A stretch of DNA of 41,364 bases from a virus (lineage: Duplodnaviria; Heunggongvirae; Uroviricota; Caudoviricetes): positions 1 to 41,364 of the IMG/VR virus record IMGVR_UViG_2909257012_000006, one strand, 5' to 3'. The stretch's first letter is position 1. Every line of letters starts with the position of its first letter. The notes below the pieces were generated by a model. That model was not told the origin of the DNA. It made no database searches and was given only the letters and a program-made list of their open reading frames with translations. Made by a program: the position numbers and the translations under genes. Of this stretch, positions 1 through 41,364 are shown piece after piece.

Positions 1-1158
1 ATGCTCACCGTTAAGCAGATTGAAGCAGCAAAGCCGAAAGAAAAACCATACCGCCTTCTCGATGGTAATGGCCTGTACCTTTATGTTCCTGTATCCGGGA
101 AAAAGGTATGGCAGCTTCGCTACAAGATTGACGGTAAGGAAAAAATACTGACCGTCGGAAAATATCCGCTTATGACTTTGCAGGAGGCAAGGGATAAAGC
201 ATGGACCGCGAGGAAAGACATCTCGGTTGGCATCGATCCGGTAAAAGCGAAAAAGGCTTCGTCTAATAACAATTCCTTTAGCGCCATTTACAAGGAATGG
301 TACGAGCACAAGAAGCAAGTATGGTCAGTAGGGTATGCGACTGAACTTGCCAAAATGTTTGATGACGACATTTTACCTATCATCGGCGGCCTTGAAATTC
401 AGGATATTGAGCCGATGCAACTGCTGGAAGTAATCCGCAGATTTGAAGATCGCGGTGCAATGGAGCGAGCAAATAAAGCCCGCAGAAGATGCGGCGAGGT
501 TTTCCGTTACGCTATTGTCACTGGTAGGGCTAAATATAACCCGGCACCTGACCTTGCTGACGCCATGAAGGGATACCGCAAGAAAAACTTCCCGTTTCTT
601 CCTGCAGACCAGATCCCGGCATTTAACAAAGCACTGGCAACATTTTCAGGAAGCATCGTATCGCTCATTGCGACCAAAGTTTTACGCTACACAGCCCTCA
701 GAACAAAAGAGCTTCGTTCCATGCTATGGAAGAACGTCGATTTTGAAAACAGGATTATCACCATCGACGCCAGTGTGATGAAGGGACGCAAAATTCATGT
801 GGTTCCTATGTCAGACCAGGTGGTTGAACTTCTCACTACGCTAAGCTCAATCACCAAACCAGTATCAGAGTTTGTTTTTGCCGGGCGCAACGATAAGAAG
901 AAGCCAATCTGCGAGAACGCGGTACTGCTTGTGATCAAACAAATCGGCTATGAGGGTCTGGAAAGCGGTCACGGATTCAGGCATGAATTCAGCACGATTA
1001 TGAACGAGCACGAATGGCCCGCTGATGCTATTGAAGTGCAACTGGCACATGCCAACGGCGGATCTGTGCGCGGGATTTACAACCATGCTCAGTATCTCGA
1101 TAAGCGCAGAGAAATGATGCAATGGTGGGCGGACTGGCTTGATGAAAAGGTGGAGTGA
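1..1158 (+). CDS. int: Tyrosine integrase, P4/IntS-like (argW-targeting type)
   Basis: 385-aa ORF; C-terminal HGFRHEF...AHANGGSVRGIYNH catalytic region; from recall near-identical to E. coli IntS; directly follows xis at window end. Confidence 0.93.
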   Translation: MLTVKQIEAAKPKEKPYRLLDGNGLYLYVPVSGKKVWQLRYKIDGKEKILTVGKYPLMTLQEARDKAWTARKDISVGIDPVKAKKASSNNNSFSAIYKEWYEHKKQVWSVGYATELAKMFDDDILPIIGGLEIQDIEPMQLLEVIRRFEDRGAMERANKARRRCGEVFRYAIVTGRAKYNPAPDLADAMKGYRKKNFPFLPADQIPAFNKALATFSGSIVSLIATKVLRYTALRTKELRSMLWKNVDFENRIITIDASVMKGRKIHVVPMSDQVVELLTTLSSITKPVSEFVFAGRNDKKKPICENAVLLVIKQIGYEGLESGHGFRHEFSTIMNEHEWPADAIEVQLAHANGGSVRGIYNHAQYLDKRREMMQWWADWLDEKVE

Positions 1159-1186
1159 ACAATCTTAAAAATCAATGAAAACATGC

Positions 1187-1218
1187 AAGGCCTGGCACTC
1201 AAGTTACAGGCCTTGCGC
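1187..1218. terminator. Perfect 10-bp inverted repeat hairpin (GCAAGGCCTG-N12-CAGGCCTTGC) between convergent int and tailspike; probable bidirectional terminator
   Basis: Seen directly; lies between 3' ends of convergent genes; moderately U-rich on - strand side, AT-rich flank. Confidence 0.45.
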
Positions 1219-1266
1219 ATACAATTTATCAACTAATAATTTAATTTTTTAAAATATCAATTAATT

Positions 1267-3450
1267 CTATCTAATCCTGAACATTACAATTGGAGCAGAG
1301 CCAGAAGATAAAGGGCCTGACCAATGGTATCTAATTCTGAAAGAAGACTCACTTGGAGTTCCGATAATTTCTATTGGACTTAAAGTTGCACCTTCTGCAG
1401 AACCAGCAGGTTGTCTAAACCCCAACACAGCAATCTGGTTTGGTGTTGGGGCATACAGAAAATTATGCTCAATATCAACCTCGTTAGATTCGCTACCTGT
1501 TGGGTTTGGCATATTCCACTCAATATAATCGTCAGTTGATTTACCATTTATTGAGTTTCCAACTGTTGCCATAATCGTCCACGTACACGTCCTGTTAAGG
1601 GCTGCCATTCTATCACCTAAAAACCTATTATAACCATTTGCGCCTGAAGTGATTAATCTTATATTCTCTGATGCACATGTGCCAATGCTGTTAAATCCAG
1701 TGCAATCAGAAGAAAGCCCCTTCGCAGTTATATCTACGCTGTTCGCAAAACAAATTGTTGTTGAATTTACTGCATCGCGAATAAGAGCAGAACCCGAAAA
1801 CAAATTATCACACGAACCTCTTATATTATTACCACCGCCGGATAAGTAACATAAATTTCCTTTTATCCTCTTGGATGTAAAAGTAACATTGTTATTGTCA
1901 CCAGTAACAGAAAGAAGCGAGGCTTTAATAGGGGCATTGTCACTCTGTAACTGACCAATTTGGTTTATTGTAACTACATTGTTGTTGCCTGATATAGCTA
2001 TCTGATACCCATCATCATCAATTGAAGGTGAATATCTTTGTGCTTTTATATTGATGTTAAGTGTCCAGATTGTACCGTTATCCAGAAGCATGTCGCGGAG
2101 AGGAGAAATTGAATCGCCAGTGTAGTTATCTGGCATTCTTCCACACGCCCTGGCTTCTGCGATGGCAACAACACCATGTGCCCCGTTGGTAAACCAGTAA
2201 CCACCTAAACTATTATCAACACACACGTGCCTCGCATTGAATCGGTTAACACCCAGCGTCTTAAATCCATAGCCATAATACACAGCATATACATGGATGT
2301 AATTTATATCGACATGTCCTGTATAAGGAGACTGATTATCAAGAACAATTCCATGACATGGTTCTCCGGGATAAAGAAGGCTTTGTTGGCTTGTTGCTGT
2401 TAATCTTGCGCTGTAAGGAGGAAGTCCACACGGGCCAAAAACAATATAATCTAGGTTAATATCACCTGGCCCCCTGAACACAACCCCCTCTCTCCCTGAA
2501 ATTCTTCCCGTTATCCTCACTTCAGAGGCGTGTTCCTGATTATCATGAAATGATCCATACCCCTCTGAATAGAGAGCATGTTCTGCAACATTATTAATCT
2601 CAACGTCAATGTGGTACATGCTGCCGAATATTTTAATGGCAGTTCCATAGTCATTGTTAACAGTGTCGCAAGTTCTCCATGAGTTTGTATCTCTTTGCAA
2701 GTCAAGATAATTACCATCAATGGTCATATCTTTTATGCTAAATCCATATGGCGCATCAGACAGATTTTCCACAACGCCAAAGCCATGTGTTTTAAATACA
2801 TCTGTATTACTACCTTTTTTAACATACAGAAATGTTGCTCTCTTTCCAGAGCCTTTATGATGAACGCCTGTATAAAGAATGATAGGAGAATCTATTAAAT
2901 AAACACCTGGAGGGTAAAATATTTCCCCGCCACCATTATTAAAAGCAGCTAATGCTGCGGCATTAATGGCATCAGAATCTGATGTCAATCCATCTGCTTT
3001 AGCTCCATAGTATTGAGGTGTTTTCCTGATTGCATCGTAAACCGTTGAAGCGCCGAAACCGATATATTTACTACCATCTGTACCGCCAATAAGTAATTTA
3101 AACTGATCCGGGTCATACTTCAGCACATTCGGAAAATAGAACTGCTGTGTACCATACGCATCATAAACAGCCATAGAATGGCCTTGCACGGTTACGAATT
3201 TGGCAATCTGTCCGTTATATACCGGATATCCAGCAGCGTTAATGATTATTGGTTGCGAAACAGGAACGTGAGAACCGTCTTCATTCTCCACATAAACCTG
3301 AATCTGGTTTTCAGGGTTTACCGGGTCAGTGTCAATTTTACCGATATAAATTTTGCCATTGGCATTTGCTTTAAACGAGCGAGCTAAAGTAAATAACTGA
3401 CTTGGTTGTGAAACAACAACGTTGTATAATTGTTCTGGCATAATAAACAT
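1267..3450 (-). CDS. Tailspike protein; P22-like N-terminal head-binding domain with a different receptor-binding domain
   Basis: 727 aa; N-terminus [37 protein letters not shown]...[13 protein letters not shown] matches recalled P22 gp9 head-binding domain; remainder diverges. Confidence 0.85.
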
Positions 3451-3463
3451 TCCGGAGAAAATA

Positions 3464-3964
3464 ATGAGTAAAAGACGTCACGAGGTAGTAACTCGGGAGC
3501 GCCTTATGGAGGTTCTCGATTACAATAAAGAAACAGGAATTTTCACTTGGAAAAAGAAATTAAGCGCCAGAGGTGCTGTTGGGAAAGTTGCTGGCACAAT
3601 TTCTTATGGATATAACGCAATTAATATTGATGGCGTAAGATATTTTGCACATAGACTTGCCTGGCTGTATGTATATGGCGAATGGCCCAAACAAGAGATT
3701 GACCACATTGATAGAAATAGAAGAAATAACGCAATCTCAAACCTTAGGGATGTCAGCAGAGTCGTAAACGCATTAAATGTCGGACCTCGAAATAGCAATG
3801 CTGGAATCAAGGGGGTAACTTTCTGTCAAGCCAGAAATCAATGGCAAGCTCAGATAAATGTCTCAGGTAAAAACATAACCCTTGGGAGATTCAACACCAT
3901 TGATGAAGCGGCTATAGCTTATAAGGCAGCAAACATGGTTGCTGACCATCTGTTGAGTAGGTAA
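3464..3964 (+). CDS. HNH endonuclease with AP2-like DNA-binding domain (homing-endonuclease-like), paralog of 25106..25597
   Basis: Motifs [13 protein letters not shown]...[17 protein letters not shown] and GIKGVTF; GGAG RBS 6 nt upstream of ATG at 3464. Confidence 0.75.
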
Positions 3965-33804: not shown

Positions 33805-33887
33805 CGGTGTGTAGCTCAGCAGGTAGAGCGGATTCGTTGGCTAAGCCGTGGAATCGCGTCACCAGTTCAAGTCTGGTCACACCACCA
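33805..33887 (+). ncRNA. tRNA-like element with canonical acceptor, D and T arms but a 15-nt loop in place of the anticodon loop
   Basis: Hand fold: acceptor CGGTGTG/CACACCA (6/7 bp), D-arm GCTC-AGCAGGTA-GAGC, 5-bp stem GATTC/GAATC enclosing GTTGGCTAAGCCGTG, variable GCGTC, T-arm ACCAG-TTCAAGT-CTGGT; no encoded CCA in register. Confidence 0.45.
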
Positions 33888-40938: not shown

Positions 40939-41106
40939 ATGCACTTTCGAGTCACAGGTGAATGGAATGGAGAGCCATTCAACAGAGTTATCGAAGCAGA
41001 GAACATCAATGACTGCTATGACCACTGGATGCTATGGGCGCAGATAGCGCATGCAGACATAACCAATATTCGAATTGAAGAACTGAAAGAACACCAAGCC
41101 GCCTGA
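40939..41106 (+). CDS. Small hypothetical protein (55 aa)
   Basis: GGAG RBS 7 nt upstream; stop lies in terminator loop; below track cutoff. Confidence 0.4.
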   Translation: MHFRVTGEWNGEPFNRVIEAENINDCYDHWMLWAQIAHADITNIRIEELKEHQAA

Positions 41107-41121
41107 TGGCGGTTTTTTATT
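41096..41121 (+). terminator. Rho-independent terminator upstream of xis-int
   Basis: CCGCC-tgat-GGCGG followed by TTTTTTATT. Confidence 0.65.
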
Positions 41122-41125
41122 ACCT

Positions 41126-41145
41126 GATTTGCAGGTTCGATTCCC
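41126..41145. other. tRNA T-arm-like segment (TTGCAGGTTCGATTCC), candidate att core or relic
   Basis: 16-mer matches recalled E. coli argW T-stem/loop; located upstream of xis next to IntS-type integrase; downstream bases do not complete a tRNA 3' end. Confidence 0.35.
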
Positions 41146-41163
41146 TATTCGGAGATAGCACTC

Positions 41164-41364
41164 ATGCAACACGAACTACAGCCTGATTCACTGGTTGATT
41201 TGAAATTCATCATGGCCGATACTGGCTTCGGTAAAACCTTCATCTATGACCGGATTAAGTCCGGCGACCTGCCAAAAGCCAAAGTTATCCACGGGCGAGC
41301 AAGATGGTTATATCGTGACCATTGTGAATTCAAAAATAAGCTCTTAAGCCGCGCCAATGGGTAA
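41164..41364 (+). CDS. xis: AlpA/Xis-type excisionase or transcriptional regulator
   Basis: 66 aa; DLKFIMADTGFGKTFIYDRIKSGDLP HTH typical of AlpA family; stop abuts int start across the window boundary. Confidence 0.75.
   Translation: MQHELQPDSLVDLKFIMADTGFGKTFIYDRIKSGDLPKAKVIHGRARWLYRDHCEFKNKLLSRANG

Follow-up and report, generated by a model that had tools for sequence, protein, structure and literature searches.

The DNA analysed in this study, to which we refer as the window, is a stretch of 41,364 nucleotides from a Caudoviricetes record of IMG/VR (IMGVR_UViG_2909257012_000006, positions 1 to 41,364). We propose, with a probability of roughly 0.7 for the explanation as a whole, that its phage attachment site (attP) belonged to a spacer between xis and int that was trimmed away, that the gap between int and the neighbouring tailspike gene holds a terminator, and that a tRNA-like 16-mer in front of xis is a conserved box that takes no part in crossover and may function as an operator. 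The window is an ordinary argW-integrating, P22-like prophage with the IntS-TorI recombination module of KplE1, HK620, Sf6, CUS-3 and Kapi1, and the finding as such is ordinary apart from the conserved box.

Base 1 of the window is the A of the int ATG. The int gene (positions 1 to 1158, + strand), as identified from the open reading frame list, Pfam and nucleotide matches, encodes an IntS-type tyrosine integrase of 385 aa, and the Pfam domains Arm-DNA-bind_3, Phage_int_M and Phage_integrase found in its product correspond to the arm-binding, central and catalytic domains of heterobivalent tyrosine integrases. We observed 96-97% nucleotide identity between this gene and the int genes of HK620, CUS-3, Sf6, HK633, IME10 and Kapi1, which bears out an earlier sequence-only reading of this DNA that had taken the integrase to be IntS-like and argW-targeting. 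A gene 100% identical to the window int, with the RefSeq name intS, is present in E. coli GN04171. At the other end of the window, the xis gene (41164 to 41364, + strand; open reading frame list and PDB match) encodes a recombination directionality factor (RDF) of 66 aa, TorI, and the last base of the window is the end of the xis TAA codon. The 66-aa protein gave no Pfam or NCBIfam match; it is matched over its full length by PDB entry 1Z4H, 'Tor inhibition protein' (E = 7e-43), and is 100% identical to the products of TorI loci in E. coli genomes. The tailspike gene (1267 to 3450, - strand; 727 aa), which is convergent with int, was identified from the open reading frame list and from the RefSeq product 'phage tailspike protein' under a 100% match. 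This gene is rare, being matched over its full length in 8 of 5,426 E. coli genomes. Positions 1-3500 of the window are contiguous and 100% identical in GN04171, and the prophage of that strain, measured from the int ATG to the torI stop, is 579 bp shorter than the window; for the right 4.9 kb of the window, no full-length 100% match was found among complete E. coli genomes. Every feature of the KplE1/HK620/Sf6 module that could be tested within the window is present, including the IntS-type integrase, the TorI-type RDF and the layout of the two at opposite ends. The source for the KplE1 (CPS-53) IntS-TorI module at argW is said to be the work of Panis, Mejean and Ansaldi from 2007.

The attP of the window would lie across its two ends, in DNA outside the window. 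In HK620, Sf6, CUS-3, KplE1 and Kapi1, attP is found to the 5' side of int, in the interval that separates int from the RDF gene (xis/torI) (PMC2951348; PMC8787464). The HK620 record annotates the attP core, CTGCAGGGGACACCAT, in a 249-bp spacer between the stop codon of hkaC, the TorI homologue, and the int ATG, and in the Sf6 record the core is annotated in the same way between the xis homologue and int. The CUS-3 prophage record opens with the 3' end of argW, reading TTGCAGGTTCGATTCC|TGCAGGGGACACCA-tttatcag..., and its int gene runs from base 192. With attP between the RDF gene and int, integration leaves int adjoining argW at attL and places torI at the far end, beside attR. This is the arrangement observed in GN04171, where an intact argW gene for tRNA-Arg(CCU) ends 161 bp upstream of the intS ATG; attL reads ...GATTC CTGCAGGGGACACCATT tatcag..., and attR, located 73 nt after torI, reads gtagatgt CTGCAGGGGACACCATT cttgtg... 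and is followed by the host gene dsdC. The sequence-only reading had suggested checking whether argW is intact after lysogeny, and in this prophage, which is identical to the window over positions 1-3500, it is.

From the prophage junctions, the core can be placed 73 nt after the xis stop, with a further 159 nt between it and the int ATG. The spacer of the circular form would then be made up of 73 nt of P arm, 17 nt of core (CTGCAGGGGACACCATT) and 159 nt of P' arm, for a length of 249 bp, which is equal to that of HK620. The P' arm would hold TorI sites, IntS arm-type sites and the int promoter. TorI sites of the GTTCG type and IntS arm-type sites of the GGGTAAAA type were seen in attL and attR of GN04171, in HK620 and in a diverged relative, L158; the window is without this spacer. 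All real junctions fall in CTGCAGGGGACACCAT, and no copy of this core exists anywhere in the window with up to 3 mismatches allowed, as would be expected if the window had been trimmed. In the circular phage, the xis-to-int junction would be expected to contain GTAGATGTCTGCAGGGGACACCATTTATCAGTTCGCTCC. The earlier expectation that attP should be found downstream of int therefore starts from a premise that does not apply to the IntS-TorI family, in which attP is located between xis/torI and int.

The window spans exactly the sequence from the int ATG to the torI TAA. Of the 80 IMG/VR contigs that carry this TorI, 29 have the torI stop as their exact end; of the 8 that share this tailspike, 3 begin at the int ATG, like the window; in a few IMG/VR contigs, torI is followed by an intact attP. 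From the window ends and from these relatives, we infer that the window is a provirus that was trimmed at gene boundaries, and a cut from the int ATG to the torI stop would leave both att halves just outside. The apparent attP anomaly, described in the sequence-only reading as an unusual att placement, can thus be attributed to the assumption of a lambda layout in combination with trimming of the provirus at gene boundaries. There is nothing atypical in the att placement for the IntS-TorI family: the arrangement is already known as a hallmark of the family, and what appeared unusual about it here is an effect of the window edges. For automated att-site calling, such trimmed proviral contigs call for caution.

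The IntS-TorI module of the defective K-12 prophage KplE1 is highly conserved in HK620, Sf6 and CUS-3 (PMC2951348; PMC3509656). By comparison with KplE1, HK620, Sf6, CUS-3 and Kapi1, the module of the window has the same int (96-97% at the nucleotide level), an identical TorI protein, the same leader including the 16-mer, and the same separation of int and the RDF gene to opposite ends of the element; and in GN04171, which has the identical left end, the argW-attL and attR carry the published core CTGCAGGGGACACCAT(T). The window differs from modules of the KplE1 type only in its cargo, that is, in the rare tailspike and a different mosaic of ea genes, and the att spacer is missing from it through cutting. 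In lambda, the order is xis, int, attP, with sib retroregulation, and int and xis are found together at one end of the prophage. Like lambda, the module of the window encodes an arm-binding tyrosine integrase together with a small RDF of the winged-helix type, whose gene is co-oriented with int, but its attP is between xis and int, whereas that of lambda is downstream of int. As a consequence of this location of attP, xis and int are separated on integration, and in the IntS-TorI module the int and RDF genes, once separated in this way, are transcribed independently (PMC2951348).

The gap between int and the tailspike gene (1159-1266) contains a perfect hairpin with 10-bp arms, GCAAGGCCTG...CAGGCCTTGC, at positions 1185 to 1216. 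The predicted folding energy of the gap was -21.4 kcal/mol for the + strand (z = -4.3) and -29.4 kcal/mol for the - strand (z = -4.5). A U-rich tail follows the hairpin on the - strand only, and for this reason the hairpin most likely terminates the tailspike transcript. Nothing tRNA-like and no core-like sequence was detected in positions 1159-1266, and in GN04171 the region is internal to the prophage. These observations agree with the sequence-only reading, in which the gap was said to hold only a perfect 10-bp inverted repeat and no attP. We conclude that the hairpin is a terminator-type structure between the convergent int and tailspike genes and that it is no att site. A lambda-type att site in the DNA to the 3' side of the int stop was considered and rejected, since the gap offers only a hairpin and is internal to the GN04171 prophage.

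The 16-mer upstream of xis, TTGCAGGTTCGATTCC, is located at positions 41129 to 41144 (+ strand) and matches E. coli argW exactly at positions 47-62 of the latter. The argW reference used was the tRNA-Arg(CCU) gene of E. coli GN04171 (L003, 2765-2839), which reads ...GGGCTAATTGCAGGTTCGATTCCTGCAGGGGACACCA. The 16-mer is made up of TT from the variable loop, the T-stem 5' arm GCAGG, the T-loop TTCGATT, and CC; its earlier recognition as a match to the argW T-stem and loop was correct. Equally correct was the remark that the bases after it fail to complete the tRNA 3' end, in that the window continues with CTATTCGG, whereas the argW tRNA reads TGCAGGGG. ARAGORN found no tRNA at the 16-mer, and no second match to it was found in the window at up to 2 mismatches (0.03 expected by chance). 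An identical 16-mer is present upstream of hkaC in HK620, K-12 MG1655 (KplE1) has both the identical 16-mer and the identical leader upstream of torI, and the 16-mer sequence is identical in 75 of 80 IMG/VR contigs.

To the 5' side of the 16-mer is an intrinsic terminator (41096 to 41121, + strand; terminator scan and fold), made up of a hairpin (41096-41115) with an 8-pair stem and a 4-nt loop, and of a T-run. This terminator closes the ea-gene region, immediately ahead of the xis module, and a hairpin with a T-run occurs at the matching relative position in several diverged lineages. To the 3' side is the xis/torI Shine-Dalgarno sequence GGAG (41151 to 41154, + strand), with 6 nt between it and the box and 9 nt between it and the ATG, and the position of this element is conserved in all box-carrying relatives. 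The core of the box, GTTCGATT (41135 to 41142, + strand), was delimited by its invariance among relatives and corresponds to G53 and the T-loop sequence. It includes the TorI recognition pentamer GTTCG (41135-41139), and its GATT together with the next two bases gives GATTCC (41139-41144), the putative attB-left half-site of IntS.

To follow the box through relatives, torI homologues were taken from one genome per species and from IMG/VR with diverged queries. In IMG/VR, a scan by TorI alignment gave only copies identical to those of E. coli and an Enterobacter query was dominated by such copies; the diverged lineages came from the Serratia and Edwardsiella queries alone. The T-loop-like box was found in about ten lineages with TorI proteins 74-88% identical to that of the window; the named sources are Enterobacter, Citrobacter, Serratia, Pantoea and Edwardsiella, in addition to proviruses. 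The spacing between the box and the torI Shine-Dalgarno sequence that follows it is 4-7 nt in nearly all lineages and 13 nt in lineage I (L012/L110), and the sequence around the box is largely unalignable among the diverged lineages. Across 15 representatives of diverged Enterobacterales, GTTCGATT does not vary at all, and mean pairwise identity is 0.93 for the 11-mer GGTTCGATTCC, as compared with 0.39 for the 14 nt to its left, 0.46 for the 4 nt to its right and 0.55 for torI four-fold degenerate sites, a comparison that took in only loci with the motif at up to 2 mismatches and therefore carries an ascertainment bias. Within the E. coli lineage, the number of minor alleles per column is 0.31 in the 16-mer versus 3.5 at the third positions of torI codons.

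Only in E. coli is the match to argW complete (16/16), and the ancestral shared part of the box is (C)AGGTTCGATTCC(TG). In other lineages, 13-15 nt (CAGGTTCGATTCC(TG)) are shared with the argW T-arm; the box is without the 3' T-stem arm and the acceptor strand and stands outside any tRNA gene as judged by ARAGORN. Tandem copies of the box, 16 nt apart, are present in L112-L114 (CAGGTTCGATTCCCGTCAGGTTCGATTCCC), and L116 and L010 have degenerate second copies. The box is absent from L014, as a clean deletion, and from L016, L017, L111, L161 and the Pantoea and Proteus groups, with torI and attR apparently intact in several of these, which indicates that it is dispensable in at least some contexts. 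Taken together, the box is conserved well beyond neutral expectation, with an intrinsic terminator on one side of it and the RDF gene's ribosome-binding site on the other.

The 16-mer is not an att crossover site. We searched 5,426 complete E. coli genomes with a chimeric junction query in which the 5' part of argW is joined to the torI leader at the 16-mer, and such a junction was found in none of the 5,426, while 5,422 of them match one half of the query or the other. The attR fragment used for efficient excision in vitro starts within the torI 3' end (primer attR-IHF2; PMC3509656 section 3.6), and we located this primer at window positions 41342-41361. Excision in vitro with such an attR fragment proceeds at about 80% efficiency (PMC2951348). 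As the fragment begins inside the 3' end of torI, the box is not needed for excisive recombination in vitro. In favour of the suggestion in the sequence-only reading that attP might lie upstream of xis with an atypical core, no argW-like sequence other than the 16-mer is present in the window. The suggestion is refuted by the junctions of GN04171, CUS-3 and Kapi1 and the attP annotations of HK620 and Sf6, all of which put the crossover in CTGCAGGGGACACCAT, and by the 0 of 5,426 E. coli genomes with an argW/torI-leader junction. In a variant of this proposal, likewise very improbable, the window would be a complete circle with the int start directly after the xis stop, attP having been deleted. 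The window ends would indeed be directly adjacent coding boundaries, but gene-boundary-trimmed proviral contigs with the same ends are common in IMG/VR. We also considered that the xis cassette might have split a longer tRNA-like attP, of which the 16-mer and the core, 31 contiguous argW nucleotides in sum, would be the two parts. This was rejected because relatives keep their own T-loop remnant, TTCGATGT, directly to the left of the attP core, and the box is accordingly a second copy rather than one half of a split site.

If the box is not a crossover site, it might be a functionless relic of argW, left by an old aberrant or secondary recombination event and carried along with the conserved xis module. 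The exact identity of the 16-mer to argW, the lack of the box in several related modules (including the clean deletion in L014), the result of a terminator/promoter scan, in which no promoter-like hexamers were found, and the location of the box outside the 135-bp attR that is sufficient for efficient excision in vitro (PMC3509656) are all in line with such an origin. However, neutral decay should have brought the box to the level of its flanks (39-46%), and GTTCGATT is instead invariant where torI four-fold sites have an identity of 55%; polymorphism of the box in E. coli is about 10-fold below that of synonymous sites; and the distance from the box to the Shine-Dalgarno sequence is nearly fixed, with duplications of the box in some lineages. 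A relic without function is for these reasons unlikely. Of the relic proposal made in the sequence-only reading we retain the part that concerns origin, the box being probably argW-like in its derivation, while its invariance across diverged lineages suggests that a function has been maintained.

Less probable still is an activity of the box in the torI leader RNA, either as a mimic of a T-arm or through an anti-Shine-Dalgarno pairing, AUU(C/U)CC:GGAGAU, that would limit translation. AUUUCC is paired with GGAGAU in single-sequence folds of L013, L130, L158, L160 and L015, and hairpins resembling a T-arm are possible in L012 (CAGG-TTCGATT-CCTG) and L018 (GACAGG...CCTGTC). Against this, RNAalifold detected no consensus structure and no covarying pairs in the 15 representatives, the T-stem 3' arm is unconserved, and the window itself can form only 3-4 pairs; for the anti-Shine-Dalgarno pairing, both partners are invariant, so that covariation cannot lend it support. 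Nor does the box correspond to a known RNA family, as Rfam yielded only a sub-threshold antisense match to STnc130 (24 bits against a gathering score of 55), and this match was driven by the terminator hairpin. The HK620 record offers a different account, in which the region is the cII-activated promoter pI and its likeness to a tRNA would be coincidental: a 'promoter, phage integration' and a cII-binding site (TTGCCTGATTTGC) are annotated over exactly this sequence, and the Sf6 record copies the annotation by homology. The cII repeat of the lambda type is TTGC-N6-TTGC, which straddles a weak -35 hexamer and goes with a usable -10 hexamer, but HK620 has TTGC-N5-TTGC and the window TTAC-N5-TTGC, and the TTGC repeat is absent in lineages E, F, G, I and J, all of which keep the box. 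Furthermore, no sigma-70-like hexamer pair is present upstream of xis, and a promoter for the establishment of lysogeny at this location, upstream of the RDF gene, would co-express an inhibitor of integration. The torI promoter is itself termed 'non-characterized' in PMC2951348. A cII-dependent promoter was rejected on the grounds of the N5 spacing, the TTAC in the first half, the missing hexamer pair and the lack of conservation of the repeat, and we regard the pI annotation as very unlikely to explain the box.

In the reading that we favour for it, a tentative one to which we would give well under an even chance, the T-loop-like GTTCGATT box may be an undescribed operator in the RDF leader that mimics the argW T-loop and the left half of attB, with feedback mediated by TorI or by bridging IntS. 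As an operator, the box may be bound by a protein of the module itself, TorI or IntS, and may in this way control torI. TorI binds five sites in attL, with cores of GTTCG, GATCG or GTCCG, and it is through two of these, I4 and I5, that TorI represses the int promoter (PMC2951348). The five-box array of TorI sites between the core and int is also found in the diverged L158, which has an intact attP. The box shares GTTCG with the KplE1 attL sites I1-I5, and in lineage E (L158) the sequence of the box in front of torI is CAGTTCG, as at sites I1 and I3. Binding of TorI at the box would amount to negative autoregulation of the RDF.

The box also differs from the mapped TorI sites in several respects. 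Its conservation runs on beyond GTTCG into ATT, as ATT(C/T)C, which the attL sites lack; the mapped sites read GTTCGC and GTTCGT. Since the conserved ATT is foreign to these sites, binding of TorI alone would not explain the box. The box is present singly or as two copies 16 nt apart, whereas the attL sites form an array, and this tandem spacing does not match the 10-nt phasing of sites I3-I5, which counts against the operator reading. Finally, the box is located upstream of torI, beyond the mapped att regions, and is to be regarded as a candidate site only. The ATT after GTTCG is a better fit to the T-loop and attB half-site than to the mapped TorI sites, and the CAG-GTTCG context fits TorI.

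Within the operator proposal, the alternative ligand would be IntS. The attB sequence GATTCC-TGCAGGG-GACACC and the attP sequence GATGTC-TGCAGGG-GACACC have an inverted symmetry, from which the putative core-type half-sites of IntS can be read as flanking a 7-bp overlap. IntS could bind the box through the predicted attB-left half-site GATTCC. The IntS arm-type repeat GGGTAAAAT occurs twice just downstream of torI, and from these arm-type sites a loop over torI, bridged by IntS, is conceivable. Either protein at the box would provide feedback control on synthesis of the RDF.

We found no description of the torI-leader box in the accessible literature, apart from the speculative annotation as pI. 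As a conserved candidate operator, the box would offer a testable handle on the regulation of torI, and in this sense it would represent an incremental advance within a known system. In the argW module family, expression of the RDF is considered in the literature to be the main control point of excision. If the operator proposal is true, the box would be part of the uncharacterised switch that decides on excision in a widespread family of argW prophages.

In the leader of torI, the xis gene that encodes the 66-aa TorI protein, the Rfam search returned a match to the Enterobacteria sRNA STnc130 at 41087-41214 on the - strand, running antisense to the xis leader and the xis start. The score of this match (24 bits, E ~0.2) is sub-threshold, as the Rfam gathering score for STnc130 is 55, and the match is due mainly to the bidirectional terminator hairpin; it is unlikely to be meaningful. 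We observed that the leader is polymorphic among E. coli prophages at position 41122 (position 2009 of the HK620 locus, L001), 7 nt to the 5' side of the argW-like 16-mer, where either TTAC or TTGC is found. HK620 carries an annotated "cII site" here, and the variable base belongs to its first half.

On the far side of the attR core, the crossover sequence found 3' of torI in integrated relatives, a second integrase-type gene apparently follows directly in ten loci (L116, L143, L020, L161, L121, L159, L016, L008, L019 and L130). This reading was made by eye from the sequence; a scripted motif check on the ten post-attR loci flagged none as an integrase. By inspection, these loci suggest that tandem islands may occupy argW in many genomes. 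In several of them GGTTCGAT is located ~140 nt past the attR core, between repeats such as GGGGCAT...ATGCCCC, which hints that the GTTCGAT box may recur in neighbouring P4-like integration modules. The attR cores of L008 and L019 are shortened or changed, for example CTGCAGGGGACAATCC and ATGCAGGGGGCAATAC in place of ...GGGGACACCA, suggesting that these could be decayed or secondary junctions.

Short contigs carrying a TorI homologue and leader were also found in 2 non-enterobacterial MAGs, labelled "Actinomycetes bacterium" (L011) and "Parachlamydiaceae bacterium" (L028). Their TorI homologues share 85-92% amino-acid identity with the TorI of the window, their leaders bear the enterobacterial-type box, and contamination or mis-binning is the most likely source of both.

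At the other end of the window, the tailspike gene (1267-3450, - strand) is a rare allele: just 8 of the 5,426 complete E. coli genomes carry a full-length match to positions 1-3500, at 97-100% identity. The gene is adjoined by a 180-aa ORF (3422-3964, + strand) that overlaps the tailspike start and bears the RefSeq annotation "HNH endonuclease signature motif containing protein". The sole tRNA gene detected by ARAGORN in the window is a phage-encoded tRNA-Pro(UGG) at 33805-33886.

Finally, we examined where IMG/VR proviral contigs of the window's phage family begin and end (loci L030-L109 and L272-L276). Many of them are cut precisely at a gene boundary: the contig end coincides exactly with the torI stop in 29 of 80 cases (L030-L109), and the contig start with the int ATG in 3 of 8. 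Contigs cut at these positions systematically lack both att halves, a trap that att-site prediction faces generally with such proviral contigs.
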